A DNA stretch of 64,000 nt, from positions 24,650 to 88,649 of the forward strand of contig CAZZJO010000043.1 in assembly GCA_964654645.1 (NCBI GenBank). Reading direction: 5' to 3'. The stretch comes from an uncultured Verrucomicrobiota bacterium (lineage in GTDB: Bacteria > Verrucomicrobiota > Verrucomicrobiia > Limisphaerales > CAZZJO01). Of the stretch, positions 32,606 through 62,178 are shown piece after piece. Both the position numbers and the translations under genes were made by a program. The notes below the pieces were generated by a model. The model made no database searches. It saw only the letters and a program-made list of their open reading frames with translations, and was not told where the DNA came from. Position 1 is the stretch's first letter, and each line of letters opens with the position of its first letter.

Positions 32606-32836
32606 TTACTGGTCAAGCACGCGGACTCTATAAAAGCTGGTTGGCAGATTCGGCTCGATCGCTAATATGTAGGCGATAGGCTCACCGGTCCCGCTTATGA
32701 TTGGTGTTACTGGTTGCCAATTTTTGGAGGTTAGGTCGCTGGTCGTTTCAATTACAAATTTTTGGCCTGGGTATGAATTCCATTGTAAGAGGATCGAAGT
32801 AGGGTCATTTGCTGAAGCGTGAATGGTTGGTGGGGA
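32606..32836 (-). other. Shared C-terminal domain, copy 2 (..LQWNS..KFVIETTSDLTSKNWQPV..SFYRV)
   Basis: Aligned by eye with the other copies. Confidence 0.65.
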
Positions 32837-35800
32837 AACTACGATGATGGTGAATGTAGTAGAGGATGAAAGTGGAGGCGTGCCATTGTCTGTGACGATT
32901 ACCGAAACGATGTTTGTTGAGGGAGCATTGTTCGGGGTCCATATAATCAATCCGGTTGTGGGGTTGATTGTCATTCCTTCTGGTGCTTCTGGTCCCAGTG
33001 AAAACGTCAGTGTTTGTGGGGGTATATCCGTATCAGTGGCCACGAGTTGAATCGTGATTGTTTGCCCAAGAATAGCAACTCGGTTAGACACGGGAGCGAT
33101 AACAGGGGCCGAGTTAGATAGGGCGTTTGGCGCTAATGGTGTAGGTGGCATGAAGTAAATGTTTGCTCCGCCGTCGGGGAATCGGCCTTGACTCACGTCC
33201 GTGATCTGCGGTCCAAAAACTACCACATCAACTGGTGTGCCTTCAGGGGTGAATAACCCTATTGCCTCTCCAGCCTTTGATAGTGCGAAGTTCACGTGAA
33301 GTTGTGGGTTATTAGTGCTATTTTGATTACTTTCTCCGTCAGCCCAAACAAGTAAGAAGCCTCCGGGTGGTATTACGTATTGTCCAGTTTCTGGTATACG
33401 GAATTTGAATGGGTTATCGAGAGTATCAGTGAGATAGTACCCCCCTAAATCAACAGCTTCTGAGCCAGCATTCCAAAGTTCAAACCAATCTTCGAAATTG
33501 CCGTCTACCGGATCGGCGAGGGTTCTGGTGTTATCAGCCATCCATTCGTTTATGAAGACTTGGATTGGAGGCGAGGCCGGGTTGTTAGATGCGCCAGCTG
33601 TTGCATAGTAAAGGTTCCGGCGGTAGAACGGTTGGCCATCAGGGATGCTGCCATGGGACCAGTTAGCGGGTACATTGTTGTACGACACGTAGTCAAGCAC
33701 CTGTGTTGAATTATTGATGACGCGGCTTAAAATAACAATGCCACTGGTTGGAGTAATTCGGAATGAGGTGTGCAGGTGATTTGTAGTTGTTTGGTTAATT
33801 TGGCCGTCACACCAAATTACTAGGAAACCGTTGGCTGGGATTGTGGCATTGGATGGGAATGCCCATTTTGTTAGGTTAGTTGTGGTATCGCTGAGGTAAA
33901 GTCCCCCTAGGGTTACAGGTGATCCGCCTAGGTTGATTATTTCAACCCAGGGATCGCGCTCATTATAGTTATCTGCAGGTCCCGTAATGTTTTCTGGCTG
34001 AACCTCATTTAACCAAATTGGTGGGAATGGAGGAAGCGTGTCGACGAGGGAGTTTTCCCAGCCCGGCGTGCATGGATAGGGTGCAGATTGAAGAACATTT
34101 GTTAGGACTGCTTCCATGCGCATGCCAAAGACTATGTCGCTGCTGTTAGCGGCGTTTTGGTGTACGCTTACGGCAATTACGTTAGTGCCAGTCACAAACA
34201 CGTTGCCGGGGATGGTGAAAGTATCGGGAGAAGTCGCGTCCCCGTTAGGAGGTATCCCGCTTGCAAGGGTTGAATTAGATACAGGTCCAGGGTTCATTCG
34301 AATGCGGGCTACCTCGGTGCCGTTGACGTAGAAGACCGCACCATCGTCAATATAAGCTGATACATTGACTGCATAGTACTTAAGTGAGTTTGTAATAACT
34401 ACGTAGGTTCGGAAGTAATATGCATGACCACTTGGCATACCGTTAGTGGCAATCCGTGGGTCTAACAAAGTGGTTTTGATCAACGGAGTAATAGCAGGAT
34501 TATTTTCATAAGCTAGCAGGCCTTGTCCCGAAGGCCATTTCGAATCATCGTAGTTCGGGCTTTGCCAAGCCACGTTGTCGAGATTTGATACCTGCATGTA
34601 TTTCCAGGTGGAGGAATGGTCCAGCAGTAAAATGTTGGTCGAGGGTGGAGTCGGTATGTTGGTGAGCAATATCCAGTTGGCTACTCGGCTATTATCTTGG
34701 TATGCGTCGATCAATTGTAATGAAGCTGCATTAGTTGGCATGGGCCATGGTGGAGCAGCTTCGTACTTAATTCGATCTACAACAACAAAATTAGTGGTGT
34801 TGGGGACTGGCCGAGAGAGGGTTAGTACAGCGCCCCGTGGTGGTATAGGAGTAGGCAAGGTGTCAAATGGTACGCGATAGATTCCGTATGTTTCATTGAA
34901 CACAAATGGGTTTTCTGCCAAGACAAGGTAGTTTTGCGGTAGCAAAACTGTGCCTGTTGGGAACACATATTGCAATTCTTCGATCCGCCATCCTGTAAGG
35001 TCAAAGGCAATGTTTGTGTGGGCGTTGTAGATTTCAATAAACCCAGCACCTAAGCGAGGGGGAGCATACATTATTTCGTTGAACACGACCCAGCCTGCTG
35101 GATCTGGTTCTTCGAAGTTATTAGTGAGGGTGATTGTGACTGTAGTATCAGGGATTTGATTGCTGTAGCGGTCGGATGCGGCAATTTCTAGCACATTGTT
35201 CGTTTTACTGACAGGGATTATCACTTGCCAGTTTGTGACGCTTGTCCAGGTTGGTTTGTAAAGGACGCCATTGACGCTGATGAAGCTAACTTGTAAGGGT
35301 GCAGTACCATTCAAAACCAATACATTGGAGGTTTGCAGCGTAATGTTGGTGGGTGAAGAAATTGTGAACATGGCTTTGGGTAGCACATTTGTTAGGTATG
35401 CAGTTCTTGTAACCAAAAAATTTTTTATTGAAGTGGGCGGTTGGACAGGGATGCCGTTAAGGACAAGGTTTTGATACCGTTCGTCCAAGATAGGTTCGTA
35501 AACTTCTGGTTTGAGCACTGTTCTGAGTGCTTCGTCAAACCCTTGCAGGTATTCCCGATGTATTTCTGGGATTGAGTTTATCATCCACGCGAGCCTTGGA
35601 TCGTGGATTGAATAGATACTGTCTGTGGGGGAGCTGCTTGATGAGCCCAAGGCAAGCTCCATATCCCAAACCCAAAGGCGCCACGGTTTATTGTCGGGTT
35701 TGTACGCGTACATATTTTTCCCGCGACTGTAGCCGTAGCTGTCCCAATTCCCACAAATGTGATTTACTACTATTGGTCTTAGGAAGTTGGGCAGGTCTAT

Positions 35801-38800
35801 CCATGTTCGGACAAGGTCTAAGTAATTTGGAGCATTGGTGGCATTTACCGCTGCGATGAAATTGGTAAATGGAGCCCAGTCATCGGGGTTACGTGTAACT
35901 CGTGGTCTCCAGTTCCAACGGTATCGTTTGGTATCAATTTCTCCGGTTGCTTTGTTAAACCGTTCAATTGTTGCTGTGGTAATTCCGTGGCTTGTGGCGG
36001 TGTCCTCAAACTCAAACCAATCCTCGATTTTTCTAAGCTGTCCATTTTCGTCGTTTGGGAAGAACTCCTTGATTGTATCGCTATTTGGTTGTTGAACGTC
36101 GTCGTAAATTGTACCCCTGGTAAGGCCGTTTACGACAACATGGACGTGTCTGCGATAGTTGTATGGTTGACCGAGTTTTCTTGCAATCCAATTTGCTGTT
36201 AGGTCGATTTGGGTAGTCCGGTCGTTATGGAAGAAATGGCCTGTGGTCACGTCGTAAGCGTTTAGTACAAAAGCCTCGGCACCTAAGAATTTTTCGTCGG
36301 GTGGGAAGTTTACTTCGTAGTCACACGCGAAGCCCAAAGGCCCATCATAGGTTGGAGTATGGAATGGGCTTCCGCTGTACATTGTGCCGACGTTGTAAAC
36401 TACACGGCAGTTGTTGTAGACAAAGGTTGCATCGATTGGGTCATTTGCATTCTTTTCACGTTGTGTCCAGAAGTTAATATTGGAGCTGGTTAACCAAAGC
36501 CTGTAGGTACCTAGGGACCCGGGTTTGGATGTTTCGCCCCAACGCACTAAACATTCCCGGGCTGGGGCAGTCGCTGGGAACGCGTTTGTTGCGTTGCGAG
36601 TGTCGATAGCGTAGATGTAGAAAGCTGCCAGGGTATTCGAAGCGCATCCGGGTATTATGCCGGTATAAATACCGTCGTTTGCAACCTCGTCGCCACCAGT
36701 GATACCGTCGTCTGACATCCGAACTTCATAGTAAGAAGTTGAGGGATCAATTCTGTACCTCAGATAGACTCCACCTACCCCGTCAGGGTCTGATACTCTT
36801 GCTGTGACTAAGACTCGCTGACCCGGGTTGGGAAGAATAGGAAGGTGTTTGACTTCGGTTATAGTGGGGCCGGCGTTAGGTATACGTCTTGAATTTGGTA
36901 AACCAGGTGTTCCACAGTTGTTTGGTACGTTAAGTTTGTAAGAGGCTTCCATCCAATTACCTTGGAGTCGGAAAACGATGTATGGTGAGCCTCGCAACCA
37001 CCGTACGGCCGCGCGAACGGTGCCTGTATTAGGAGCGTTGGTGACTACTGTCCCAGTAAGACGCGTCCAGACTTTGTTTGGACCCGTGTCGCCTCGTGCG
37101 ACTGAAACCATGTGTAATGCTTTGCTACCATTGAGACCCACACCGTCTTGGACGTAAGAGTTTCTAAGCACGCCTCCCCAGGACCAAGAATTGGTGCCGG
37201 ATTCGAACGTGCCGTTGGCTAACAAGTTAGGCCCGTTATTGTTGCGGAACTCTAAGTTATCGACGAGTGATTCTCCGGGGCCTTGTAAGAAGAACTCGAA
37301 TCGCGTAGGTGCTCCGTAGTAAGTGCCTTGATTGATCATGCTAGGTGTTTGCCCATTTTCGAGGATTTGTGTTACGTCGATTTGAGTCCATGGAGCCTTG
37401 CTACTTTCGTCACTGTCAGCCCAATTTTGGCCGATGGAGTTATCGGCAAATGGGTCGATGAGTTCTAAGGAACTACCCCACCCATCAGCCCAAATGCTCC
37501 ATTGTCCCCCCTCATTGTAGGTGACGTCGTTTACTACGACATAGAGGAAGTTGGTGCGTGGTAACCCAGCTGCATTAGTAGTGATTTGAGGTTCAGGCAT
37601 AAGTAGTATTATTCGGTCGCTGCTATTCCGGAGTCTGCCTAAGTAGTTACCAGTGAGGTTGGTCGCATTCAATTGCGGATATTTGGCTAATAAGTTTGTG
37701 AGGTTCTTGGCTACTACGAGGTATGAATCCGGCCCGATAATCGTATTTGATGGAAAAGTGAAACGTACCCCGCCCTGGATTTGCCATCCGCTTAAATCAA
37801 CTGGTTCTTGGCCACGATTGTAGAGTTCAATGTATTCGTCGTCATCAGAACCAGAGATCGGGTTATACATGATCTCATTTATGACGATTGGCCGTATGAG
37901 TGGAGAGGAATTGGGTTGTCCAGGAGTACGTGTACTAAGCTCTCGGATACAGGGATGACCGTCTGGATAACGTCCAGAGGCGATGCCTTTTGCTTGTCCG
38001 CCAAATGCGACGGCATCGAGCACACGGGTAGCATTCGAGTTGATCAGGAAGATTCGGTCGCCAGCCGCATCAAGCCCAAACCCTAGGGTGGATCTATAAA
38101 AAACTGCAAGACTGCGAGGTGGTAAGATTGTGCCCACTGGAATTTGGAATTTTAGTAGGTTGGGGTCGTCCGTAAGCCACGCCCCGGACAAATCAATAGT
38201 TTTTGTGGTGGTGTTAAATAGTTCGATGTAGTCTTCGGCAGAGGTATCGGTGTGTGCTAAGAATTCGTTTATAACTACACCTGCTGCTGGGTCGGTTGTA
38301 TAAGGGTCGAATCTACCTGGGGAGCCTCCGATAAAGCTGCTTGGACCCCAAGCACGTGGATCGTTTTCGCCGTAGGAGGGATTGCGCAGAACAAGTGAAT
38401 GACCGCTACCATCCGGTGAAACGGGCCATGGGTAGGTGGTGTCGTATTCAATTTCTAGCAACACACCTCCCAGCTCGTTTAAAAGTCGCACGGTACCCCC
38501 ATTATTGGGTAGGGAGCCTGTGTAGGGTCCTAGGCAATCAACCCCGTAAAACTGTTTAGCGGCAGTTGGATTTTTGGCGACCACCAAGAACTGGCCCGGT
38601 GCTAATTTAGTGCCTGGAGGGAATTCGTAGCTGATACTACCGGCAAGCTGGTGGCCGGTGAGATCTTCAGTGACAAGACCAGAATTCCATATTTCAATGA
38701 ATTCTAGGTCTTCACTATCTGGCCACGACCCGGGTGGGTTATACATGATTTCGGTAATGACAATGGGAGTCCGTCTGCTGGAGGGACCAGGCGGTTCGAA

Positions 38801-40723
38801 TGGGAGGAGCTGGTTAGTAACAATCACTCCAGTTGCATTGGTAAGTTCTGTGAACCGTGCAGTGATAAAGGTGTCGGGTTTACTTGCTGTGACTGCTAGG
38901 CCGACTTGAATCGCTTCCGGCATTGTTATTACAGCATTTCCTAGGAATTCCCATGTGCGTCCATTAATGCTGGCATATCCAGAGAACTCGTTCCCAGATC
39001 GCTTTAGTCGAAGCCACGTGTATGGGAAGTTTGGCGCAAAATAGCCACTCATGTTTGCAAAGCCTCCTTGATATGCACGCCACTGGAAATGGCATCCGAC
39101 ATGGGAAGGGGTGGCGAAAGTTGCAGCAAACACTGCGTTAGACTGTAATCCTGCGCGAGCCATTAATCCTGCCCTAGTCCATATTTCCCCGAACTCTAAC
39201 AAATTGACCCGTATTTGTAGGTCGAAGTCGTTGGTGACCGTGCGCCATAAGAAAATAAATTGATCGTTTGTGTTTCCGATGCCTTCTCCTGAAGCGGTAA
39301 TTTCAAACCCGGAGGGGATTGGTTGAAACTCCCCATTTGTGATTGCAAAGCCGATCGGGGTGAACATGTAAGGTGAGGCGATGAACTTAACGGTGGAACC
39401 TGGGATAATTAGGTTTCGAGCTGCGGCAAGGTCACGCACTCCGGATACCGTAAGTGTATATGTGATGCCCTCTGTTTGTGGAGCTGTATGGAGTAAGATT
39501 GCCGAATTTGTTTCATAGAATGAGGCTGCGATTACAGGTAACTGGCCATTTGTGCTAGTTATTTGATAATTGACTATGTTGGTGGCAGTTGTAGGTTCTA
39601 AGCCTTCTGAGAAATGTACTATTACTCCGGTTGGGAAAACGCTAATAGCCCGCAAGAGTACCGGTCCATTTGTATCAGGCAAAACCGTCAGAATAGCGTT
39701 ACTTGATATGGCCCATTTTACCACGCCCTGATATACATTGGTTAGTCTTGCGTGGAAAACATCGTTGTTGTTTGTGAGGTAAACAATAGGGATGGTAAGC
39801 GTGGTATTGGTGGCTCCAGGAATAGGTTGGCCATTTCGATACCACTGAATTGTGATCGGTCTTCGTCCAATTGGGTAGAGGCTAAAGGTTGCTGAGGCCA
39901 GTTCCGTTACAATGCAATTGGTCGGCTGTCTATAAACTTCTACAGGACCATCCAGAGCGCAAATGTCGGGTCCTAATTGGTAGCTTATAGCGATTTCCTC
40001 GGGAGTGAGAATACCGTCGTAAATCCGAAATTCGTGAATGGACCCTTTAAAATAGGGATCCCACACCCATTGAGATCGGCCTAACCAGTTATTGACGGTA
40101 TATCCTAGCATGGTTGGGTTGTGTGTCATTGAAGGATTTTCACCTACCAGTTGGCCGTCGACGTACAGTCGCCCAATACGATTTCCTGCATCAATTGTAA
40201 ACACGACATGGGCAGGCCGTCCGATTGGCAAACGGGAACCCGGCCACTCCACAACTTGTTCGTTACCGCTACCTCCAACGGTTATTGCTGCGCGGAGTAC
40301 GCCGCCCCCGCTTTGCGGGGTTATAAAGACATAGTTTGTACCTTGGTTGGGATTGTTTTCCCCGCCCGTGCTAAAGCCAAAATCGAAGATCCGCGCCCAA
40401 GTTCCGCTGCCTTCGTCTGTTACCCAGGCCTCAAAGGTGATGTTGGATCGTGTGGCTATTATGCCATTTGGTAGATCTACATAGGCTGAAGACCCATTTA
40501 GTACGACGCTGCCGTTTGCAATTGAGGCCCCACCCATGAGTGTGCCATGGGCATTCCCCACCGAGTCTGAGGCATCTGATGTGAATGAGTATCTATTCAC
40601 TATCTCGGCCGTTAGTGCAGAGACACTGAGTGTTAGCATTGCAGTGAATTTTAGACAGGCAATTAGACTTCGGGCGAGTCGCGGTTTGGATTTTGGTCTC
40701 ATAGTTTGGCGCTTTATCAGCAT
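32606..40723 (-). CDS. 2705-aa exported protein: LamG, Ig, about 6 lamin-tail domains, CotH-like kinase, Ig and C-terminal SFYR domain
   Basis: Signal peptide. Six (I/V)x(I/F/L)(N/T)E..(Y/A)NP-type lamin-tail starts. CotH motifs GNWDSYG, KNMYAY and WDMELALG (about 35640-35750). GMTINPTTGLIIWTP. Confidence 0.85.
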   Translation of the reverse strand: MLIKRQTMRPKSKPRLARSLIACLKFTAMLTLSVSALTAEIVNRYSFTSDASDSVGNAHGTLMGGASIANGSVVLNGSSAYVDLPNGIIATRSNITFEAWVTDEGSGTWARIFDFGFSTGGENNPNQGTNYVFITPQSGGGVLRAAITVGGSGNEQVVEWPGSRLPIGRPAHVVFTIDAGNRIGRLYVDGQLVGENPSMTHNPTMLGYTVNNWLGRSQWVWDPYFKGSIHEFRIYDGILTPEEIAISYQLGPDICALDGPVEVYRQPTNCIVTELASATFSLYPIGRRPITIQWYRNGQPIPGATNTTLTIPIVYLTNNNDVFHARLTNVYQGVVKWAISSNAILTVLPDTNGPVLLRAISVFPTGVIVHFSEGLEPTTATNIVNYQITSTNGQLPVIAASFYETNSAILLHTAPQTEGITYTLTVSGVRDLAAARNLIIPGSTVKFIASPYMFTPIGFAITNGEFQPIPSGFEITASGEGIGNTNDQFIFLWRTVTNDFDLQIRVNLLEFGEIWTRAGLMARAGLQSNAVFAATFATPSHVGCHFQWRAYQGGFANMSGYFAPNFPYTWLRLKRSGNEFSGYASINGRTWEFLGNAVITMPEAIQVGLAVTASKPDTFITARFTELTNATGVIVTNQLLPFEPPGPSSRRTPIVITEIMYNPPGSWPDSEDLEFIEIWNSGLVTEDLTGHQLAGSISYEFPPGTKLAPGQFLVVAKNPTAAKQFYGVDCLGPYTGSLPNNGGTVRLLNELGGVLLEIEYDTTYPWPVSPDGSGHSLVLRNPSYGENDPRAWGPSSFIGGSPGRFDPYTTDPAAGVVINEFLAHTDTSAEDYIELFNTTTKTIDLSGAWLTDDPNLLKFQIPVGTILPPRSLAVFYRSTLGFGLDAAGDRIFLINSNATRVLDAVAFGGQAKGIASGRYPDGHPCIRELSTRTPGQPNSSPLIRPIVINEIMYNPISGSDDDEYIELYNRGQEPVDLSGWQIQGGVRFTFPSNTIIGPDSYLVVAKNLTNLLAKYPQLNATNLTGNYLGRLRNSSDRIILLMPEPQITTNAAGLPRTNFLYVVVNDVTYNEGGQWSIWADGWGSSLELIDPFADNSIGQNWADSDESSKAPWTQIDVTQILENGQTPSMINQGTYYGAPTRFEFFLQGPGESLVDNLEFRNNNGPNLLANGTFESGTNSWSWGGVLRNSYVQDGVGLNGSKALHMVSVARGDTGPNKVWTRLTGTVVTNAPNTGTVRAAVRWLRGSPYIVFRLQGNWMEASYKLNVPNNCGTPGLPNSRRIPNAGPTITEVKHLPILPNPGQRVLVTARVSDPDGVGGVYLRYRIDPSTSYYEVRMSDDGITGGDEVANDGIYTGIIPGCASNTLAAFYIYAIDTRNATNAFPATAPARECLVRWGETSKPGSLGTYRLWLTSSNINFWTQREKNANDPIDATFVYNNCRVVYNVGTMYSGSPFHTPTYDGPLGFACDYEVNFPPDEKFLGAEAFVLNAYDVTTGHFFHNDRTTQIDLTANWIARKLGQPYNYRRHVHVVVNGLTRGTIYDDVQQPNSDTIKEFFPNDENGQLRKIEDWFEFEDTATSHGITTATIERFNKATGEIDTKRYRWNWRPRVTRNPDDWAPFTNFIAAVNATNAPNYLDLVRTWIDLPNFLRPIVVNHICGNWDSYGYSRGKNMYAYKPDNKPWRLWVWDMELALGSSSSSPTDSIYSIHDPRLAWMINSIPEIHREYLQGFDEALRTVLKPEVYEPILDERYQNLVLNGIPVQPPTSIKNFLVTRTAYLTNVLPKAMFTISSPTNITLQTSNVLVLNGTAPLQVSFISVNGVLYKPTWTSVTNWQVIIPVSKTNNVLEIAASDRYSNQIPDTTVTITLTNNFEEPDPAGWVVFNEIMYAPPRLGAGFIEIYNAHTNIAFDLTGWRIEELQYVFPTGTVLLPQNYLVLAENPFVFNETYGIYRVPFDTLPTPIPPRGAVLTLSRPVPNTTNFVVVDRIKYEAAPPWPMPTNAASLQLIDAYQDNSRVANWILLTNIPTPPSTNILLLDHSSTWKYMQVSNLDNVAWQSPNYDDSKWPSGQGLLAYENNPAITPLIKTTLLDPRIATNGMPSGHAYYFRTYVVITNSLKYYAVNVSAYIDDGAVFYVNGTEVARIRMNPGPVSNSTLASGIPPNGDATSPDTFTIPGNVFVTGTNVIAVSVHQNAANSSDIVFGMRMEAVLTNVLQSAPYPCTPGWENSLVDTLPPFPPIWLNEVQPENITGPADNYNERDPWVEIINLGGSPVTLGGLYLSDTTTNLTKWAFPSNATIPANGFLVIWCDGQINQTTTNHLHTSFRITPTSGIVILSRVINNSTQVLDYVSYNNVPANWSHGSIPDGQPFYRRNLYYATAGASNNPASPPIQVFINEWMADNTRTLADPVDGNFEDWFELWNAGSEAVDLGGYYLTDTLDNPFKFRIPETGQYVIPPGGFLLVWADGESNQNSTNNPQLHVNFALSKAGEAIGLFTPEGTPVDVVVFGPQITDVSQGRFPDGGANIYFMPPTPLAPNALSNSAPVIAPVSNRVAILGQTITIQLVATDTDIPPQTLTFSLGPEAPEGMTINPTTGLIIWTPNNAPSTNIVSVIVTDNGTPPLSSSTTFTIIVVSPPTIHASANDPTSILLQWNSYPGQKFVIETTSDLTSKNWQPVTPIISGTGEPIAYILAIEPNLPTSFYRVRVLDQ

Positions 40724-40824: not shown

Positions 40825-41394
40825 TTACCAGCCACCCTTGCTAAGTTTGTGGACTATGTGCCGGGCTAAGTTTTCTGCTAGGATGTCTACACCCCGCCGT
40901 TCAGAGGCTGAAAAATCTTCGCCACTTCGGATTATTGTAGTACCCCTAGCTGATCCACTCCAAACAACGTCTTTGGATCCACACTGGTATAGTTTTGCTT
41001 GGGCGGTGGCTATCAATTCGTAATCCACCCCTGCCACAACCTCTACTGGACTATAACTGATAGCGCGGCGTTCATACCGAACAATTTCAATTTCCAGTAT
41101 ATAGTCGGCGGATCTAGAGTCAGCGAGTCGAAACGTTCCGTCCAGTTGAATTGCTTTTCGAAGTGCTGCAGTAATTGGTTCTGTCAGATATGGCTGAGTT
41201 GTTTTATTTGCAACTGGGGGGACGGCGATTTGGCTACCAGGGGGGATTATTGGTGCGACTGTGCCCAATCGATATCCTGCACATCCCACAGTCAATAGCA
41301 GTAATGCACAAACTACTAAAGTGGCGGTGTTATTGAGTGGTTTTTTGTCTTTTTTCCTGGAGTTGGGCGATTCGCTTGAGCGCTTCTTTTGCAT
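40825..41394 (-). CDS. lptE: LptE family lipoprotein
   Basis: Lipobox LLTVG-C followed by AGYRLG; IAVPPVANKT and ENLA..IV. The nearest in-frame ATG is 41394, inside bamD (ORF track 41430). Confidence 0.75.
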   Translation of the reverse strand: MQKKRSSESPNSRKKDKKPLNNTATLVVCALLLLTVGCAGYRLGTVAPIIPPGSQIAVPPVANKTTQPYLTEPITAALRKAIQLDGTFRLADSRSADYILEIEIVRYERRAISYSPVEVVAGVDYELIATAQAKLYQCGSKDVVWSGSARGTTIIRSGEDFSASERRGVDILAENLARHIVHKLSKGGW

Positions 41395-42313
41395 AGTCAG
41401 AGTTGGGGGCTTTTTTGATGGCGTCGGCATAGTAGATTAAGGCTGCGTTGGTTCGGTTGTGCTTTTGATAGTAAACAGCGATTTGGAAGCTTCCACGTGC
41501 CTGTTCGGTCCGTAATTCATCCACCAATCTTTGCGCTTGTTCTACACGAGGGTCGTTGGGGTAAAGGGCAATAAAGTCGGAGAGAAGATTGATGGCTCTA
41601 TAGGCTGCAGTTTGGTCGTACTCGCTTTTTCGGGCTAGTTTAGTATGACATATTCCAGCTTTGTACATGGCGTCGGCGGCTGTTTCGCCGCGTGTATTGT
41701 ATCGGTCTGCAGCACGTTCATATAAATGGGCGGCCATTTCATAATCTTTGCGTTTTTCATAGGCCTCAGCGGCTTTTAATTGGGCTTGAATCCCAATGTC
41801 ACTGAATATCGCATTTGTGACGATCGTTTGGAACAAATCCGCGGTTCTACTCATCGAGGGAAAAGTGGGGATTAGTCCAAAAAGTTTAAACCGCTGGCCA
41901 GCTAGAAATCGGGTTGCAATTTGCATTTGTCTTTGGAGCGCAGTTTCGCGTAGTGGACATCGGGGATAACGCTCGATGAGTTTCTGGTATTCTTTGAATG
42001 CGCGTTCGTCATGGCGTTTGGCTTCGTAACATTGCGCAATGATAAATTGTGCATTTGGGGCATAATCAGATAGAGGCCACACCCGGAGAATGCGTTTAGC
42101 TGCTTTCAAAGCGGTTCCGTAATCTCCCTTTTGAAATGCTTGTTCAGCAACTTGTAATTGAGCTAGCGCGGTTTCTCGCCGCCACTTGACTTGTTTGCCT
42201 GGGGGTTCATACGTCCAGCCTTCCCCCGGGGTGTAGACCAGGGGTGCTGGCGCCTGGTAGACCATGGCTAAGAATAATACGGCAGCGAAGACCCAAATAC
42301 ACCGCCAATTCAT
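41330..42313 (-). CDS. bamD: Outer membrane protein assembly factor BamD-like TPR protein
   Basis: Several TPR repeats (YQKLIERYP, FIALYPNDPRVEQA) and IAVYY..AALIYY; adjacent to lptE. Confidence 0.75.
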   Translation of the reverse strand: MNWRCIWVFAAVLFLAMVYQAPAPLVYTPGEGWTYEPPGKQVKWRRETALAQLQVAEQAFQKGDYGTALKAAKRILRVWPLSDYAPNAQFIIAQCYEAKRHDERAFKEYQKLIERYPRCPLRETALQRQMQIATRFLAGQRFKLFGLIPTFPSMSRTADLFQTIVTNAIFSDIGIQAQLKAAEAYEKRKDYEMAAHLYERAADRYNTRGETAADAMYKAGICHTKLARKSEYDQTAAYRAINLLSDFIALYPNDPRVEQAQRLVDELRTEQARGSFQIAVYYQKHNRTNAALIYYADAIKKAPNSDYAKEALKRIAQLQEKRQKTTQ

Positions 42314-43439: not shown

Positions 43440-46017
<2,578 letters not shown>

Positions 46018-46025
46018 CGTAAGCT

Positions 46026-54001: not shown

Positions 54002-54002
54002 T

Positions 54003-56312: not shown

Positions 56313-56322
56313 AACCAGTGGC

Positions 56323-57837
56323 TTAGTTCAAATGGTTTTGATTATTTGTGATCTCAAACTCGAGTTGTTCTTCAAAGATGTTTTTACGATCGAGGGAAAG
56401 CCAAGTTTCCAGGGAGATTTTTCTTAACGTGTGGAAATATTCGGGTGAGTTTGTGCCATATAAGGCTGCGGCTTTGTTGATTTTGTCTTGAATTTCTTTC
56501 AAAGGTCCCGGCTTGGGTTTCAGTATGAGTTTTTTCCCTTTTGCGTGGAATATAGCTATGGGTTGAGGCTTGTCAGCAGGGTGGATTGTGATCGTACCTC
56601 GGCCGAGACTTGCCCCAGTTGAGAATTGGATACCATCGTTTAGACAGCTGATAGGTGGGTTTGTGCTTGCAAGCGTTTCCACGTAAATAGAATCTCGGGG
56701 TACCCCAAGTATTTCTCGAGCTCGCAAACCCATCTTCACTCCAAGTATAGAGTACAATCCTAGGTGTCCATGCATCTCGGTGGCCATGACACCGAGTGCC
56801 CATTCCTCAACTCCATGCCGGAGAATGATCTGCTGTACATATGGGGCGACGTCGGGCTTATAGAACTCCGGCTCGGAGGGGAACCGAGATAGAAGGACCA
56901 TGTTGAGCATTCCTTCCTGTAGAATATCGAGATATGTGTTTGATGCTTTGGCGGTGTCGAGACCAGTTACCATCGTGACGTTTGAACATGTTGTGACGTG
57001 AGTTGGAAGCGCAATCGCAGGTTCATGCATAAGCAGCACTACCGCATCATCCCAGGCCCGGAAATGTCCAGATGCTACTAGGGATTTGACTCGTGGATGG
57101 GAATGGATTTGAAGAATGAGTGATGCGCCGGGCGAGTTGATAGATTTGAGAGATTCGAAGAAGTTGCTTGTTAGTACTAGGGTAAACTGCGGTAGCAAAC
57201 TCACGCACGTAATCGGAATGCCCGATGCAAATGCTTTTTTAGCTGCTTCAAGGTCTTGGGCTGTGTTCCATCCTTTTGGTTCCGTATCCGGAGGCGTGCC
57301 ATAATAGTAAACCCTCGAGATCATGTGTTTTAAATTGGGATATCGGCTTAGAAATTCGGCAAGATTTGACATTGGTCCTAAACAAACCCAGGTCACAGGT
57401 CTTGAAGAAGTGGCTATTGTATTGGAAAGAACCACGTGTGCAGGTTGAATATTAATTTGTGCTGGGAGCAGTAGTTCAGTCCAACCCAAGGTCCGCGACC
57501 ATGCCGACCATACGGGGTATGGTTGGTTAAGCTTATTGCCCTGGCCGACCGGAATGTTTGCTTTGTTCATAGCAGCAAGTATTTTGAGAACGTTCGTGAC
57601 ACCTATTTCGGAGGGGGTTGAACCGTCAGAAGTCACAATTGCCCTAACATCGCAATTTGGATCCTGCAATATGAGTATAATGGCGCGAGCATCATCCAAC
57701 GCCATGTCAGTATCAATAACAAGGGGCGCTGACATTTCATGAGCGATTACCTGAAATGAGAACACAACAGCAACTATTACCAGGTGTGAAAGCTTGTTTG
57801 CGGGTGCAATGGTAGTATTACTTAATGCTGGCACCAT
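56323..57837 (-). CDS. Exported nucleoside-hydrolase-fold protein fused to a C-terminal FmdE/FwdE domain
   Basis: Signal peptide, then IDTDMALDD, LGPMSNLA and WN..QDLEAA (IU-NH fold). C-terminal HGHLG..S..GVKMG and SCLNDGIQ.STGASLG.G.I (FmdE). ATG 57837 preferred (ORF track 57867). Confidence 0.8.
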   Translation of the reverse strand: MVPALSNTTIAPANKLSHLVIVAVVFSFQVIAHEMSAPLVIDTDMALDDARAIILILQDPNCDVRAIVTSDGSTPSEIGVTNVLKILAAMNKANIPVGQGNKLNQPYPVWSAWSRTLGWTELLLPAQINIQPAHVVLSNTIATSSRPVTWVCLGPMSNLAEFLSRYPNLKHMISRVYYYGTPPDTEPKGWNTAQDLEAAKKAFASGIPITCVSLLPQFTLVLTSNFFESLKSINSPGASLILQIHSHPRVKSLVASGHFRAWDDAVVLLMHEPAIALPTHVTTCSNVTMVTGLDTAKASNTYLDILQEGMLNMVLLSRFPSEPEFYKPDVAPYVQQIILRHGVEEWALGVMATEMHGHLGLYSILGVKMGLRAREILGVPRDSIYVETLASTNPPISCLNDGIQFSTGASLGRGTITIHPADKPQPIAIFHAKGKKLILKPKPGPLKEIQDKINKAAALYGTNSPEYFHTLRKISLETWLSLDRKNIFEEQLEFEITNNQNHLN

Positions 57838-57870
57838 AATAAATCGTGCTTTACAGAAGCTTTTCATATG

Positions 57871-57898
57871 GTATTAATGACATCAGAAAGCGTAATAC
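57871..57898. promoter_or_regulatory. Candidate NikR-type operator GTATTA-N16-TAATAC
   Basis: Perfect 6-bp inverted half-sites at 57871-57876 and 57893-57898 with a 16-nt spacer, upstream of a nikMN-type gene. The E. coli NikR operator is GTATGA-N16-TCATAC. Confidence 0.6.
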
Positions 57899-57899
57899 T

Positions 57900-59048
57900 A
57901 TGAAGCGACTCAGGTCAAGTTCAGTCAGATTGGCGTGTTTTGCGTTTGCAAGCCTTGTTGCTGTAAGTACGCCTGCTACAACAAATTGTCAAATAAGGTT
58001 TGTGCGGCACTGGGATTTGCAGGCTGTGACTGAAACCGGCACCAGTGCGTGGGCCGGATCATACCCGTTTACGATAATTGGTGTTCTTTTGACTGATCCA
58101 GATGAGATGTTGGATTCCACTCCGAACTTTCAGCCGGCAAGCTCGAATAACATGGGCGGTCAATGGCAGATGGTTATCCAAGCGTTGCCGCCAGATCGTG
58201 GCGGCACGTTTTTGTGGATGGGCCAAAATTACGCAATTCGGCGACCACCCTATGACGATGCCTTCAGCTATACTGATGAAGAATGGGTAGCTGAGATAAA
58301 TAGATTGAATCATGATCCATATACTGGGCATGCGTTCCGGAAAGGCGATTTAGTCGCTGTTACAGCAAACGCGAGCTTGTTTTACGGTGGCAAACGCAAC
58401 GTGAATGAGGCGCACCGGAAGGAACCAGAGTATGATTTTAACATTGTTTTACTTGCAACGAATTACGGGCTTCCCGAGCCGGAGGTAATTACATTGGCCT
58501 CTTTGGTTAGGCCTGACGACGGAAATCCGGCCACTAGTGAGGATATATTTGACCCCACGCGAATGAGTGGAGGGGAGTATTGGCAAGGGATGCGAGTCCG
58601 GATAAATGGATTAAAGTTAGTCACCACGAATGGTTGGGATCCAACTCTTTCTTGGAGTCAGCGGGTGTGTATTGTTACGGATGGTGAGAATAGATTTTTT
58701 AGAGTTCGGCATCCTAGGTATTCGTTGGGACCCGCTCCAACCAACTGGTTCGATGCCATAGGGATTCTGAATCAAGAGAGTGGATCAGGTATCCAGGGAA
58801 CAAATGGATACGAGTTGTTTATCCAAGAAGTATTGCCAGCGGAGGAACCGCGGCTCAAAGTAGAACAGGCTGTTGTGGTTAGTTGGCCCTCCTCATTGAG
58901 TAATTACAGATTGCTATCGGCAGAATCGCCCGTGTCCACCAATTGGGTTCCAGTGACTAACAAACCCGTTCTCATAGGAGATACCTTAAATGTGCTTTGC
59001 ACTCTAAATAATACACAACGGTTTTTCCGTCTTGAACGGATACGGTAG
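57900..59048 (+). CDS. Exported hypothetical protein with a probable tandem OB-fold-like region and a C-terminal RFFR domain
   Basis: Signal peptide after ATG 57900 (ORF track 57846). PEPEVITLASL..GEYWQGMRVRINGL and FDAIGIL resemble OB-fold modules of extracellular nucleases (by eye). Confidence 0.6.
   Translation: MKRLRSSSVRLACFAFASLVAVSTPATTNCQIRFVRHWDLQAVTETGTSAWAGSYPFTIIGVLLTDPDEMLDSTPNFQPASSNNMGGQWQMVIQALPPDRGGTFLWMGQNYAIRRPPYDDAFSYTDEEWVAEINRLNHDPYTGHAFRKGDLVAVTANASLFYGGKRNVNEAHRKEPEYDFNIVLLATNYGLPEPEVITLASLVRPDDGNPATSEDIFDPTRMSGGEYWQGMRVRINGLKLVTTNGWDPTLSWSQRVCIVTDGENRFFRVRHPRYSLGPAPTNWFDAIGILNQESGSGIQGTNGYELFIQEVLPAEEPRLKVEQAVVVSWPSSLSNYRLLSAESPVSTNWVPVTNKPVLIGDTLNVLCTLNNTQRFFRLERIR
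58842..59048 (+). other. Shared C-terminal domain, copy 3 (..VVSWPS..NYRLLSAES..TNWVPV..RFFRL)
   Basis: Aligned by eye with the other copies. Confidence 0.65.
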
Positions 59049-59977: not shown

Positions 59978-60039
59978 ATTTTGTATAACGCGTAGCTCGG
60001 GGTTACACTCCGGGAGAGTAAAGGCAACAAACCGACCGC

Positions 60040-60243
60040 CTATTGGTCTAGCGGAGTCCACATCAGCCGGAAAAACCGCGTCTGAGAATCAATCCGGTTG
60101 GTGTATGGGCTCGTTGCATTTGTTACTCTGGTGTAAGGACCTAGCACGTTTGTGGCGGTGTAAAGTGAGAATCTTGGCTCAGTCCATTGCAGCACTACGT
60201 TATCGCCCTGGCGCTGTAGATGTAGTGGCACGGGAGCGGGTGG
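60040..60243 (-). other. Shared C-terminal domain, copy 4 (..VVLQWT..FSLYTATNV.GPYTRVTNA..RFFRL)
   Basis: Aligned by eye with the other copies. Confidence 0.6.
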
Positions 60244-62178
60244 TTCGACTGGCAAGTCTATAACGGCTATGTAGAGGTTGCTTACGATAAACTGGGATGC
60301 TGAGCTTTGTGCGCTGGCAACTCTTATAGCGAATGCGTCGAACCTGTGGAACGGAAAGTTGGTTTCTACTCCTACCACAGTCCAGTTAGTGCCACCGCCT
60401 ATGATGGAATTTGTAATGCGGACCATGTTTTTTGCGATGCGGCTGATAGTAAGCCGATTTGTGTAAAACACGTTTTCCTGGAAGGCGGGGGCACCCAGAA
60501 GGCCCGCTGGTCCAGCAGTAATTGATACGAAATCGCCTATTGTGCCCATTAAGTTAGCTGAATCGAGTGCTGCCCTATAGTAAAGCCCGATTGGACTGTT
60601 TATGGAGAATACTTTACCAAAGTCGATATTCACCATGAATCCATTGACCATGGTGCCGTTCCCACCGCTACCACTGAACCCACTTGCGGTTGGTCGAGTT
60701 GCGCCATCGGCATAGTTAAATAGCCCAAGCCTTAGCCCACCATTGCTTTCCACGATTCCATTTGCTTGGAAGACAAACTCAGTAACTAGCCCTTTACCTA
60801 CGTCTAAATGAATAGGAGGAGCATCTTTGTCGGTGAAAAACGCAAGTACCAGCATTGAAGATGTCTGAGGAGGTTCTAGGACTAGATTATATCTAGTGGT
60901 TTGGTTTTCGTCGTCCCAGTAGCCATATAGGTAACGCCCCGTACCAGATGAGTAAAGCCAAGCCGCATTGGTTGTGTTAACGGGATATCCAGGTACAGTG
61001 TCACCCCATTCGTAATCTTCCCACCGTTCATCTAAAACCAAGCCGGTTGGGGTTTTAACTGCTTGTGTAACGTTGACCGTTATTATCGAGGATGTGGCCC
61101 AGCTATTGTTGCATGGGACGTTTACAAGACATCTATATCTAATCCCATTGTCAGCCAGGCTGAGAAGGGGGGTAAAGTACTTGCTTGCATATGACCCGAT
61201 GCCTCCACTTGCATTAACCCAAGTGATACCGTTGTCGCGACTTTCCTGCCAGGAATGAACACGAGCCGTGCCGCGGCTGATGACGGAGAGCATTGTAAGT
61301 GCCCCCTCAGAAATAGTTGGATTGTTTGTTGGCAGAGTAAAATCTATCGCGGCCTTCACACACGTACCTACCGGTGGAGTTACGTCTGCCCAGTTTGTTG
61401 AGAACCGGAATTCGTCAAATGTTGCATTAGCCTCCGGCCAGACATCGAGATAAAAGCGGCCAGGCCCCGTACTGCTACTGTCTTCGTATCCTTCGCTGGT
61501 AGATGCATCTGGCGGGGGAACTTCCTCTTCAGATTTCGCAAATGTGCTTGGGGGTGGGTTGACCCAGAGGTCAACAATATCATCCGACCTTGTAGCGCCA
61601 ATCATTTGTTGCCTGGCTACCACGAAAACTGTTTCCCCCACTGCTATATTTTTTGGTACCCAAACAGGGATACCATTGGATTTTGCTATTCCTAATTGGA
61701 TGTAGTTGCCGCTTAATCGCGCTTGAATGCTGAAATTTGTTGGACTGGATCCGTTCTGCCTTGTGACTACCGCGATCACCTTGCCCTGTGGATCCAAACC
61801 GCTTGTAGAGTTAAATCTGTAGAGAAATGAGAAATATAGCTTTGCTTCAGCTGAGGGTGGATACGCCCTGTTAGTTGCAAACAGGCAATAGTGGGAATGC
61901 ACATATCCCGTTCCCCCTCGTATTTCTGCTTTATCGCCAGCAGATGCTACCAGTCCAAGAGGGGTGCCATCCAAGCTGCCGCTGCCAAACTCGACAAATA
62001 CATTGGTGGCTGTACCATACCACCCTTCGTGGGCGGCAACACCGACTTGCCCAACAGGCCCGCTTTGGCTTGCCATGAACTGGCTTTCTATAGGCGGCGT
62101 TTGCCCGAGAGCTTGTAATATGAGAGTAATTCCGAAGATACCCGCAAGGCCGATTGCGTTTGGTTTCATAGTGGTCAC
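60040..62178 (-). CDS. Exported hypothetical beta-rich protein (lectin-like regions plus an Ig-like domain) with a C-terminal RFFR domain
   Basis: Signal peptide, FDEFRFSTNWADVTP, Ig-like WQESRDNG...GIRYRCLV, and ends SQTRFFRL. ATG 62169 is the likely start. Confidence 0.65.
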   Translation of the reverse strand: MTTMKPNAIGLAGIFGITLILQALGQTPPIESQFMASQSGPVGQVGVAAHEGWYGTATNVFVEFGSGSLDGTPLGLVASAGDKAEIRGGTGYVHSHYCLFATNRAYPPSAEAKLYFSFLYRFNSTSGLDPQGKVIAVVTRQNGSSPTNFSIQARLSGNYIQLGIAKSNGIPVWVPKNIAVGETVFVVARQQMIGATRSDDIVDLWVNPPPSTFAKSEEEVPPPDASTSEGYEDSSSTGPGRFYLDVWPEANATFDEFRFSTNWADVTPPVGTCVKAAIDFTLPTNNPTISEGALTMLSVISRGTARVHSWQESRDNGITWVNASGGIGSYASKYFTPLLSLADNGIRYRCLVNVPCNNSWATSSIITVNVTQAVKTPTGLVLDERWEDYEWGDTVPGYPVNTTNAAWLYSSGTGRYLYGYWDDENQTTRYNLVLEPPQTSSMLVLAFFTDKDAPPIHLDVGKGLVTEFVFQANGIVESNGGLRLGLFNYADGATRPTASGFSGSGGNGTMVNGFMVNIDFGKVFSINSPIGLYYRAALDSANLMGTIGDFVSITAGPAGLLGAPAFQENVFYTNRLTISRIAKNMVRITNSIIGGGTNWTVVGVETNFPFHRFDAFAIRVASAQSSASQFIVSNLYIAVIDLPVEPPAPVPLHLQRQGDNVVLQWTEPRFSLYTATNVLGPYTRVTNATSPYTNRIDSQTRFFRLMWTPLDQ

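Follow-up and report, generated by a model that had tools for sequence, protein, structure and literature searches.

Why should Thr directly followed by Asn (TN) be so much commoner than the reverse order (NT) in the exported proteins of one bacterial locus, and could the dipeptide mark a site that is recognized, or even modified, in the cell envelope? The window in which the question arises is a 64,000-nucleotide stretch of DNA from an uncultured Verrucomicrobiota bacterium. A reading made from the letters of the window and their translations (the sequence-only reading) had counted TN by hand, and had proposed that T-N is the acceptor of a lineage-specific glycosylation or a similar modification, with Asn beta-turn capping as the main alternative.

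Thr-Asn in the proteins of the window

All of the hand counts proved exact when repeated, both for the three proteins in which the excess had been noticed (the 2705-aa big protein, p712 and p400) and for the few TN in the cytoplasmic controls. The proteins and the counts on which the argument depends are as follows.

32606..40723, minus strand: exported giant protein of 2705 aa (the big protein), with signal peptide, Laminin_G_3, Ig-like domains, DUF1349, six lamin-tail domains, CotH kinase-like domain, He_PIG and C-terminal FYRV sandwich (Pfam); TN 41, NT 8, 19.5 expected for each order
39230..39922, minus strand: the part of the big protein in which TN is most concentrated (residues 268-498, with Ig-like domain, SbsA-type Ig and start of DUF1349); 11 of the 41 TN sites
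60040..62178, minus strand: 712-aa exported protein (p712) without Pfam match; TN 13, NT 1, expected 3.8
57900..59048, plus strand: exported protein of about 382 aa (p400) without Pfam match, C-terminal FFRL; TN 7, NT 2, expected 2.0
21856..24288, plus strand: GH127 beta-L-arabinofuranosidase, exported, non-beta-sandwich; TN 3, NT 0, expected 1.2, thus above expectation
1234..1842, plus strand: thioredoxin, exported or membrane-anchored; TN 3, NT 1, expected 0.8
20418..21158, minus strand: 246-aa protein with N-terminal hydrophobic anchor, without Pfam match; TN 3, NT 1, expected 0.8
41330..42313, minus strand: BamD/YfiO-like TPR lipoprotein, exported, alpha-helical; TN 2, NT 1, expected 0.5
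29881..30861, plus strand: DUF3106 protein, exported; TN 2, NT 0, expected 0.5
56323..57867, minus strand: nucleoside hydrolase and FmdE domain protein with N-terminal hydrophobic segment; TN 4, NT 4, expected 1.8
4..939, plus strand: alpha-galactosidase (Melibiase_2), C-terminal part only, truncated by the start of the window; TN 4, NT 2, expected 0.9
16801..19713, minus strand: reprolysin-like metalloprotease of 970 aa (p970), exported, with LamG, He_PIG and C-terminal FYRI; a counter-example with TN 6, NT 5, expected 6.0
43477..48647, plus strand: GyrB and GyrA, cytoplasmic controls; GyrB TN 2, expected 1.6; GyrA TN 3, expected 2.3
9485..11146, minus strand: formate-tetrahydrofolate ligase (Fhs), cytoplasmic control; TN 1, NT 0, expected 1.3

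For p400 the longest open reading frame begins at 57846, and translation probably starts at Met19 (57900), directly ahead of the signal peptide.

In the big protein TN ranks first among the 400 dipeptides (z +5.4), a count matched by none of 2000 within-protein shuffles. NT has a z of -2.9, and the two form the pair with the largest order asymmetry. Once composition is controlled for, the named proteins have ratios of observed to expected TN between 2.1 and 3.4 rather than about 1. The 11 remaining signal-peptide proteins of the window, pooled, hold 39 TN against about 12.1-12.3 expected (z 8.3, ratio 3.2); the 20 cytoplasmic proteins hold 15 against about 17.2-17.3 (z -0.5). The sequence-only reading had put the excess in exported proteins only. 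As a statement about the two pools this stands, the exported one being raised and the cytoplasmic one at expectation, but it does not extend to each exported protein: p970 has just the number expected and hence no excess, and the exported LptE has no TN at all.

The excess lies at the amino-acid level

Could such a signal be spurious, produced by composition or strand skew, by low-complexity stretches rich in T and N, by DNA motifs, by the choice of one dipeptide in 400 after the fact, or by the non-independence of homologues? There are grounds for suspicion: Thr and Asn are each commoner in exported proteins, the minus-strand genes of the window are A+C-rich, and the dipeptide was chosen by the sequence-only reading after viewing the data. 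However, the observed/expected ratios and the within-protein shuffles already correct for composition, and NT, TT and NN are not elevated. In the gene for the big protein, ACNAAY occurs 41 times in frame 0 and 12 and 13 times in frames 1 and 2, and the excess is distributed over every synonymous Thr/Asn codon pair. It is present on both strands, p400 being coded opposite to the big protein and p712, and it persists across 41 to 70% GC. Taken together, the restriction to the reading frame, the use of all codon pairs, the presence on both strands and the persistence over this range of GC place the signal at the amino-acid rather than the DNA level, and the earlier claim that neither composition nor strand skew explains it is borne out. 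TN is also first of the 400 dipeptides in independent data sets that the sequence-only reading had not seen, and the excess survives counting by homology cluster. The artefact explanation is not supported on testing, and we regard it as very improbable.

Compartment and pair specificity in related loci

The same contrast between compartments is found in 72 Verrucomicrobiia-type loci, with signal-peptide classes assigned by a crude in-house heuristic: unrelated, non-family exported proteins have 440 TN against 284 expected (z 9.4), and cytoplasmic proteins 171 against 164. Across the window and the related loci, the ratio ranges from 1.55 to 3.2 in exported proteins and from 0.87 to 1.05 in cytoplasmic ones.

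The signal is specific to this pair of residues. In the exported set TN comes top among all adjacent and gapped residue pairs (z 10.3), and related pairs are not raised (SN 0.91, TD 0.87, TQ 0.78); T-x-N is at about 1.0, so that only adjacent T-N is elevated, and NT is at about 0.9 in exported and cytoplasmic proteins alike. Nor is the excess due to a few protein families, since TN exceeds NT in 59 homology clusters and the reverse holds in 22 (p = 5e-5), and singleton clusters have 221 TN against 130 expected (1.70). It is also independent of fold class: when exported proteins are divided into thirds by composition, the helix-like third has a ratio of 1.48 and the beta-like third 1.62. We conclude that selection at the amino-acid level holds TN at 1.5 to 3 times the composition expectation in exported, but not in cytoplasmic, proteins.

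The excess is restricted to one clade

If TN were a universal feature of Asn-containing turns, it should be enriched in the beta-rich exported proteins of all lineages. Asn beta-turn and strand-cap motifs, such as type I' N-G turns and Asx turns, are indeed universal, and several TN sites coincide with strand ends or with hairpin turns of the form T-N-G or T-N-D. However, the excess is missing in E. coli, where exported fimbrial, usher and porin proteins have a ratio of 0.72 (a small sample, n=52, from regions picked for envelope genes), and in sister lineages: in Kiritimatiellae and Lentisphaerae, homologues have a ratio of 1.29 and exported neighbours 0.89 (again a small sample, of 25 exported proteins). 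Family members P0117-P0119 are at about 0.65, and in a LamG homologue from Ralstonia 3 TN occur where 3.6 are expected. The universal motif was rejected on these values, which also show that the enrichment is not one common to homologues from all phyla. The excess is restricted to one clade of Verrucomicrobiota, the Limisphaerales/Limisphaera-type 'Verrucomicrobiia', to which the window belongs.

Turnover, conservation and structural position of the sites

Judged by its domains and homologues, the 2705-aa protein is a member of the lamin-tail-domain/CotH giant exported proteins of Verrucomicrobiota. The Pfam matches (LTD, 296 bits over six stretches; CotH, 67 bits; Laminin_G_3, 93 bits) are all above gathering thresholds, and its full-length homologues, at 50 to 64% identity, are Verrucomicrobiota 'lamin tail domain-containing' proteins. 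Pooled over 120 homologues, there are 3909 TN and 1625 NT against 2021 expected, and the density of TN across the family reaches 4.2 per 100 aa at residues 301-400. For p712 and 29 homologues the corresponding counts are TN 376, NT 125 and 176 expected; in the alignment of this family TN falls in 97 distinct columns, just 5 of which are conserved. In the big-protein family, Thr within TN has a conservation of 0.60 against 0.475 for the remaining Thr. Thus TN sites turn over fast among orthologues with their density kept, yet they are conserved above other Thr or Asn.

These data bear on a second explanation, namely that T-N is a lineage-specific solution to a structural or folding problem, with Thr as strand residue and Asn as turn or cap, for folding in the ATP-free envelope. 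It would have been fixed early in the clade and spread with expanded Ig-like, LamG, LTD and BACON-like domains. In the big protein, roughly 17 of its 41 TN (about 40%) stay conserved across 27 or more of 47 homologues, and several of these belong to recognizable domain motifs, 'GATN' and 'TATNxxNY' among them; a repeat protein in a related locus (L080) carries 35 TN in a recurring pattern, 'SPTNR / AATNS / TTNxW'. The GH127 enzymes, which are strongly constrained, have no excess (pooled over 120 close orthologues, the ratio is just 1.11), and paralogues within one genome differ; one subfamily with signal peptides is at about 0.9 to 1.0 within TN-rich genomes. All of this speaks for a structural role. 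The same folds, however, manage without TN, as the outgroup values above show and as does the big protein itself, whose lamin-tail domains 1 and 2 lack TN, and helix-rich exported proteins and singleton clusters are enriched as well. The high positional turnover in the p712 family also speaks against a structural role, as does the mirror pair N-T, which would be expected at turn-to-strand junctions but is not raised in either compartment.

Predicted structures were examined for the positions of the sites. The AF2 model of p712 (pLDDT 83.4) comprises one or more ConA/legume-lectin-like (LamG-type) jelly-roll domains, one or more Ig-like domains and the C-terminal FFRL sandwich, and its Foldseek matches are legume lectins and LG domains. 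In the model of big-protein residues 250-700, TN is found at strand starts and in the loops that precede them, at hairpin turns, in the middle of strands and in short helices. The two models together place 25 sites with usable confidence. About 14 of these are at most 2 residues from the end of a beta-strand, classic T-N-G and T-N-D hairpins among them; the rest are mid-strand or in a helix, linker or loop. In these models the 25 sites appear to share no single structural position. Asn capping, the main alternative of the sequence-only reading, is weakened overall, although the sites near strand ends continue to speak for it, and we consider the structural explanation as a whole rather unlikely.

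Flanking residues and known glycosylation systems

The residues that follow T-N differ from those that follow other Asn in the same proteins. Pro is reduced to 0.41-fold immediately after the Asn (p = 9e-5), and Trp is raised 3.5-fold at the second residue past it; hydrophobic residues are preferred at 2 and 4 positions past the Asn, a pattern also like that of a strand start and in this respect favorable to a structural role. Other Asn favor N-P and N-G, and the Asn of T-N shuns Gly two residues on. The disfavor of Pro right after T-N is a further difference from universal turn motifs. On the other side, G before the T of T-N is at 1.26-fold, which is not significant.

In N-glycosylation by PglB/STT3, the Asn of exported proteins is recognized in the sequon N-x-S/T or D/E-x-N-x-S/T, and Pro next to the Asn is excluded. 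The depletion of Pro after T-N is similar, but the hydroxy residue is at -1 instead of +2. The canonical sequon was rejected as an explanation: as the sequence-only reading had observed, most TN lie outside it (in the big protein, x-S/T follows just 5 of the 41), and in exported proteins N-x-T (1.02) and N-x-S (1.07) are not enriched.

A closer parallel is O-glycosylation in Bacteroidota, where the motif D-(S/T)-(A/I/L/V/M/T) is used phylum-wide, in non-cytoplasmic proteins only and in a large fraction of those exported; it has been termed the sole motif-driven bacterial O-glycosylation known to date (PMC12871550). The T-N signal is likewise restricted by compartment and clade, is spread over unrelated proteins and has a downstream preference for hydrophobic residues and Trp. 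It differs in that its flanking residue stands after, not before, the hydroxy amino acid, and in that Ser is no substitute for Thr. The D-(S/T) motif itself does not explain the data, as DT (0.83) and DS (0.87) are not enriched in exported proteins of TN-rich loci and the enriched pair is T-N. The Bacteroidota system is experimentally proven, whereas the T-N signal is known from sequences alone. In Kuenenia stuttgartiensis, a planctomycete and thus also a PVC bacterium, the S-layer protein is heavily O-glycosylated, with a tentative motif G-(T/S)-X from 13 sites (PMC5088730). There, too, an exported protein carries a minimal motif around Thr or Ser; this is a single protein, however, and the fixed residue precedes Thr/Ser instead of following it.

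A candidate recognition motif for an envelope enzyme

Our tentative reading, which we hold to be a serious possibility and not yet a probable one, is that T-N is the core of a recognition motif for a lineage-specific envelope enzyme, most likely one of general glycosylation, and hence a candidate modification site. The putative motif would be roughly [S/T]-x-T-N-{P}-[W/V/hydrophobic], read by the enzyme on many different substrates in a manner like that of the Bacteroidota D-(S/T)-hydrophobic motif. The enzyme would most likely be part of a general system for protein glycosylation, and the glycan would be attached to Thr (O-linked) or Asn (N-linked) after Sec export. Sites would be gained and lost at many surface-compatible positions, and selection would keep their overall density.

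The sequon-like behavior of T-N and its limits of clade and compartment lend partial support to the earlier proposal of glycosylation, but no oligosaccharyltransferase could be tied to the signal. There is no glycosyltransferase or oligosaccharyltransferase in the 64-kb window, and no STT3-type WWDxG protein in the window and 80 loci (1.7 Mb of related sequence), the sole match to the regular expression WWD[YWF]G being a 455-aa signal-peptide protein. Related genomes do contain GT-C-type membrane proteins, namely a PAP2+PMT_2 fusion (L028) and a polytopic protein with TPR (L065). Our literature search found no report of a T-N modification motif and no proteomic data. Three further observations count against glycosylation at T-N. 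Ser does not replace Thr (SN is at about 1), which is unusual for O-glycosylation; the conserved positions that hold some 40% of the TN in the big protein could be structural; and p970, the GH127 orthologues and the one paralogue subfamily are exported proteins without an excess.

Alternatively, T-N might be read by an envelope process that involves no glycan, such as Thr phosphorylation by the secreted CotH-type kinase domains of the giant proteins themselves, binding by a periplasmic chaperone or by a secretion or sorting factor, or the tuning of protease susceptibility. Specificity for compartment, clade and sequence fits such a process as well as it fits glycosylation, the strict preference for Thr over Ser is in its favor, and CotH kinase-like domains are plentiful in exactly these exported giants. 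However, the giant gene shows no synteny with any candidate partner. No periplasmic or extracellular source of ATP is known, which counts against phosphorylation, nor is any dipeptide-specific chaperone, which counts against chaperone binding; we judge a process of this kind quite unlikely. The CotH domain is itself nearly free of TN, an observation that is neutral with respect to phosphorylation.

Thr-Asn dipeptides in the window proteins

We counted dipeptides in all 44 open reading frames (ORFs) of at least 150 aa that were treated as the genes of the window; ORFs here and in the related loci described below were called with our own caller as the longest non-overlapping frames. Expected numbers of adjacent Thr-Asn (TN) were computed from protein composition, and O/E denotes observed over expected. 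The sequence-only reading had counted TN and its reverse, NT, by hand, and our recount reproduced those numbers exactly, both for the first three proteins listed below and for the cytoplasmic controls GyrB, GyrA and formate-tetrahydrofolate ligase (Fhs), which contain 2, 3 and 1 TN, respectively.

TN and NT counts in exported proteins of the window
32606-40723, minus strand: giant LTD/CotH protein, 2705 aa; TN 41, NT 8, TN expected 19.5
60040-62178, minus strand: p712, 712 aa; TN 13, NT 1, TN expected 3.8
57846-59048 (likely start 57900), plus strand: p400; TN 7, NT 2, TN expected 2.0
Thioredoxin, not a beta-sandwich: TN 3, expected 0.8
BamD-like protein, not a beta-sandwich: TN 2, expected 0.5
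DUF3106 protein, not a beta-sandwich: TN 2, expected 0.5
GH127, not a beta-sandwich: TN 3, expected 1.2

In 2000 within-protein shuffles of the giant protein, no other of the 400 dipeptides was as over-represented as TN (z +5.4), and NT/TN was the most order-asymmetric pair, NT being depleted (z -2.9). Because TN ranks first of the 400 and also leads in asymmetry, a post-hoc choice of dipeptide does not explain the result.

The excess persists after composition control when proteins are split by signal peptide, using a home-made and crude rule for export (a hydrophobic stretch of 12 residues without charges close to the N-terminus, plus an n-region that is not acidic). Leaving out the giant protein and p970, an exported metalloprotease/LamG protein (16801-19713, minus strand), the 11 signal-peptide proteins contain 39 TN against 12.1 expected (z 8.3), with 7 NT; the 20 cytoplasmic proteins contain 15 TN against 17.2 expected, with 18 NT. 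The earlier claim that enrichment occurs in exported proteins only thus stands for the cytoplasmic set, but it does not extend to every exported protein: p970 has 6 TN against 6.0 expected, and LptE has none.

The giant protein combines a signal peptide with Laminin_G_3, DUF1349, six lamin-tail domains, a CotH kinase-like domain and He_PIG, and its full-length homologues, at 50 to 64% identity, all come from Verrucomicrobiota where the source is named. Along its length, the Ig-like region and several of the lamin-tail domains are dense in TN; hardly any occur in the CotH core or in lamin-tail domains 1 and 2. Neither p712 nor p400 has a match in Pfam. The AlphaFold model of p712 (pLDDT 83) is all-beta, and its Foldseek matches are legume lectins and LG/LNS domains. 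Besides thioredoxin, GH127, the DUF3106 protein, LptE and the BamD-like TPR protein, the exported proteins of the window include a pseudopilin-like protein and an unusual fusion (56323-57867) of inosine-uridine nucleoside hydrolase and FmdE domains behind an N-terminal hydrophobic segment.

The giant protein, p712, p400 and p970 share a similar C-terminal beta-sandwich (32606-32830, 60040-60260, 58830-59048 and 16801-17010, respectively), with a 'W..v' strand and a terminal [RQ]-F-[FY]-R-[LVI] near the stop; most homologues of the giant protein elsewhere end in the same way. This common domain could be a sorting or anchoring signal.

DNA-level and other trivial causes

The bias arises at the level of amino acids. 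In the genes of the giant protein, p712 and p400, ACNAAY occurs 41, 13 and 7 times in frame, against 0 to 13 in either alternative frame, and at the TN sites every Thr codon pairs with both Asn codons. Exported proteins are TN-rich whichever strand encodes them (thioredoxin, GH127, DUF3106 and p400 lie on the plus strand), and minus-strand cytoplasmic genes (Fhs, NuoC-G, a radical-SAM protein) have no excess. We therefore reject a DNA-level origin, given that ACNAAY is enriched in frame 0 alone, in all synonymous codon pairs and on both strands. The contention that composition or strand skew is not a sufficient cause is upheld by the composition-controlled ratios and shuffles and by the same in-frame, both-strand pattern. 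As a separate observation, GC skew is +0.04 to +0.26 per 4 kb throughout the window (1-64000) regardless of gene orientation, and T mostly exceeds A; with G above C on the plus strand over its whole length, the window lies on one replichore with an unusually strong skew.

Other candidate causes were rejected in turn. GC content is not the driver (Spearman rho 0.23), and the excess in the giant protein's family is seen from 41 to 70% GC; nor is Asn content (rho 0.11 with the Asn fraction). Local low complexity rich in Thr and Asn is dismissed because NT, TT and NN are not raised. A hidden N-x-S/T sequon was also discarded: as the sequence-only reading had remarked, most TN lack a following x-S/T, which is present at just 5 of the 41 sites in the giant protein, and O/E in exported proteins is 1.02 for N-x-T and 1.07 for N-x-S. 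The C-terminal FYRV-type domain is not the source, with O/E 1.59 in proteins that have it and 1.47 in those without. Together with the tests on relatives below, artefact as a cause of the TN excess is essentially excluded.

The bias in related genomes

In the best 120 homologues of the giant protein, pooled, we found 3909 TN and 1625 NT, with 2021 TN expected. An independent family, p712 and 29 homologues, has 376 TN and 125 NT, with 176 expected. We then scanned the family alignment of the giant protein against one genome per species and recovered 80 loci (L001-L080) totalling 1.6 Mb. Almost all carry Verrucomicrobiota labels (Limisphaera, Limisphaerales, 'Verrucomicrobiia'), with seven from Pontiella/Pontiellaceae (Kiritimatiellae) and one from Lentisphaerae; labels of metagenome-assembled genomes (MAGs) were taken as given, and a few, such as 'Bifidobacteriaceae', are plainly wrong. 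Cultured Limisphaera strains show the bias too, O/E for the family being 1.8 to 2.8 in L011, L012, L020 and L051.

TN by protein class in the 72 Verrucomicrobiia-type loci
Signal-peptide proteins outside the query family (n=155): TN 440, expected 284, z 9.4; NT 252
Cytoplasmic proteins (n=326): TN 171, expected 164, z 0.6; NT 142
Membrane proteins (n=112): TN 139, expected 93.4, O/E 1.49; NT 85

In exported proteins, TN far outranks every other residue pair, whether adjacent or spaced by one to three positions (z 10.3), and its near-variants show no such excess (O/E 0.91 for SN, 0.87 for TD, 0.78 for TQ and 1.02 for T-x-N). Counting per homology cluster (blastp, E 1e-5) rules out a few paralogous families as the source: TN exceeds NT in 59 exported clusters and falls below it in 22 (p = 5e-5), against 73 and 65 cytoplasmic clusters, and exported proteins without a relative in the set have 221 TN against 130 expected. 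Beta-sandwich folds as the source are likewise rejected, by a split of exported proteins on helix-favouring composition (O/E 1.62 in the beta-like, 1.64 in the middle and 1.48 in the helix-like third). These results confirm and generalise the bias as clade-wide, compartment-specific, residue-exact and maintained by selection.

Lineages and proteins without the excess

The excess is not shared by all phyla. In the Kiritimatiellae and Lentisphaerae loci, a small sample, homologues of the giant protein have 103 TN against 79 expected (1.29) and other exported proteins 32 against 36 (0.89). The other outgroup samples are small as well. In 250 kb of E. coli K-12, picked non-randomly for fimbrial, porin and usher genes, the exported set contains 47 TN against 65.5 expected (0.72), and cytoplasmic proteins have an O/E of 0.74. 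A search of plasmids with tblastn matched only LamG, in Ralstonia megaplasmids, where a protein with the common LamG domain has 3 TN against 3.6 expected; one 50-kb stretch was too poor in Sec-exported proteins. Within the giant protein's family, P0117-P0119 have O/E of 0.63 to 0.67 and several further members about 1.0. The lack of enrichment in all of these groups means that the bias is not a property of such homologues in every phylum, the outcome that would have counted against the sequence-only reading. The search for GH127 homologues, aimed at exported and cytoplasmic versions across phyla, returned close orthologues only (P0150 at 96% identity, the rest at 61-72%) and so provided no outgroup; pooled over 120 of these close orthologues of the exported GH127, O/E is just 1.11.

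Paralogues from the same MAG can diverge, as in L017 against L045 (1.09 vs 2.29) and L033 against L003 (1.15 vs 2.47). A subfamily of giant LTD/CotH paralogues (L013:5111-, L034:9248-, P0075, P0077) has O/E of about 0.9 to 1.0 and is TN-normal even where the other exported proteins of the genome are TN-rich. Its members have a signal peptide, an N-terminus of the form '...ADMTPV.V.GYNLDVV' and the C-terminus 'KKF[YF]RIRL'; a missing signal peptide is thus rejected for the TN-poor paralogues, in which signal peptide and the same C-terminus are present.

Site turnover, structural position and context

TN density is kept while the positions of sites shift. Of the 41 sites in the giant protein, about 17 have TN in 27 or more of 47 homologues, and 18 are unique to it or almost so. 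TN sites of the p712 family are scattered over 97 alignment columns in 29 sequences; only five of these columns are conserved in at least 15 sequences, and 8 of the 13 query sites are essentially private. Pairwise conservation is 60% for Thr in TN vs 47.5% for other Thr, and 63% for Asn in TN vs 57.5% for other Asn. Glycosylation sequons typically evolve with a kept density and moving positions; the turnover of TN sites appears sequon-like in this respect, without proving T-N a sequon.

We mapped 26 sites on two AlphaFold models (p712, pLDDT 83; residues 250-700 of the giant protein, pLDDT 81), reading positions off secondary-structure strings; 25 lie in regions of usable confidence.

Position of 25 TN sites in the predicted structures
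One or two residues ahead of a strand: 6
At the start of a strand (residues one and two): 3
Thr as the final residue of a strand or just past it (T-N-G and T-N-D hairpins among them): 6
Middle of a strand: 4
In a short helix or capping a helix: 2
Within a longer loop or a linker: 4

In these models the sites tend to lean to strand ends, and a single geometry is absent. A lineage-specific structural habit of strand-end design is a serious rival explanation, to which the predicted positions lend some weight and against which the similar excess in the helix-like third speaks; we judge it somewhat unlikely.

Compared with other Asn of the same exported proteins, the Asn of T-N is directly followed by Pro 0.41-fold as often (p = 9e-5). 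Two residues past it, Trp is enriched 3.5-fold (p = 7e-7) and Val 1.7-fold, and Gly is reduced to 0.48-fold; Lys and Arg are under-represented both at N+2 and at N+3, and Ser or Thr is 1.55 to 1.6-fold enriched two residues ahead of the Thr. The combined context is a loose motif, [S/T]-x-T-N-{P}-[W/V/hydrophobic]. We also observed that N-x-x-x-W is over-represented in exported proteins of the 80 loci and the window (O/E 1.61, z 5.2), and that 'TTNxW[ILV]x[ILV]' turns up repeatedly in BACON-like repeats, such as those of L080:25256-30505, which has 35 TN.

Interpretation and known systems

The best-supported reading is that T-N may be a recognition motif of an envelope process of this clade, with general protein glycosylation as the most natural candidate; we hold it tentatively, at somewhat less than an even chance. 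The fuller proposal, that Limisphaerales-type Verrucomicrobiia would modify their envelope proteins through a general system, most probably of glycosylation, with the sequon core Thr-Asn, Pro excluded after Asn and an aromatic or hydrophobic residue two on, is possible and decidedly tentative. Such a putative system would act on much of the exported proteome. Recognition of another kind, namely phosphorylation by secreted CotH-type kinases or binding by a chaperone or sorting factor, is a lesser and improbable alternative; the giant protein carries a CotH kinase-like domain, its CotH core nearly free of TN.

The D-(S/T)-hydrophobic system of Bacteroidota is the only motif-driven bacterial O-glycosylation known according to a 2025 review (PMC12871550), which also gives its oligosaccharyltransferase as still unknown. 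The verrucomicrobial signal differs from it: T-N is raised, and the Bacteroidota motif is rejected as its cause, with DT at 0.83 and DS at 0.87 in exported proteins. For Kuenenia, also of the PVC group, a G-(T/S)-X site has been proposed in the S-layer glycoprotein (PMC5088730). In E. coli mature domains, the MatureP paper found Asn and Thr enriched as single residues only. Our literature search found no protein glycosylation motif or glycoproteome reported for Verrucomicrobiota, and nothing on a Thr-Asn bias in secreted proteins.

If T-N glycosylation is real, bacteria would have a second known general glycosylation system driven by a motif, besides that of Bacteroidota, and it would have come to light through sequence statistics alone. 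A T-N sequon would mean an undescribed, proteome-wide envelope modification in major, mostly uncultured polysaccharide degraders of soil, freshwater and hot springs, with sites predictable straight from sequence. It would bear on annotation, heterologous expression and modelling of giant surface proteins and secreted glycoside hydrolases, offer glycoengineering a new minimal acceptor motif, and inform the hunt for the still-unknown enzymes of motif-driven O-glycosylation. Should no modification exist, so large and strictly ordered a dipeptide bias, specific to compartment and clade, would still be a rule of protein evolution in want of an explanation, and would show that plain compartment-split dipeptide statistics can uncover lineage-specific envelope biology.

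Candidate enzymes and gene neighbourhood

The window encodes no GT-C type glycosyltransferase, oligosaccharyltransferase or other candidate enzyme. The search for oligosaccharyltransferase homologues suggested earlier came back empty: no STT3-type protein is present among the called ORFs of the window and loci, the lone match to WWD[YWF]G being a 455-aa signal-peptide protein. Ten large polytopic proteins of the loci include a PAP2+PMT_2 (GT-C) fusion (L028:18449-20641) and a protein with a polytopic N-terminus and a long TPR array (L065:2278-5058); both are of a kind that could modify exported proteins, and we treat them simply as leads.

No conserved neighbour or operon partner was found for the giant gene. 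Directly upstream of it on the same strand, the LptE and BamD-like genes (40825-42313), taken as longest ORFs, share about 100 nt; this gene order is kept in none of the 80 loci. Elsewhere in the window, a CitMHS-type transporter (12954-14215) is encoded in two pieces by ORFs that overlap, 12954-13544 (profile positions 8-160) and 13334-14215 (158-335), which indicates a frameshift that could reflect a pseudogene or a sequencing error.
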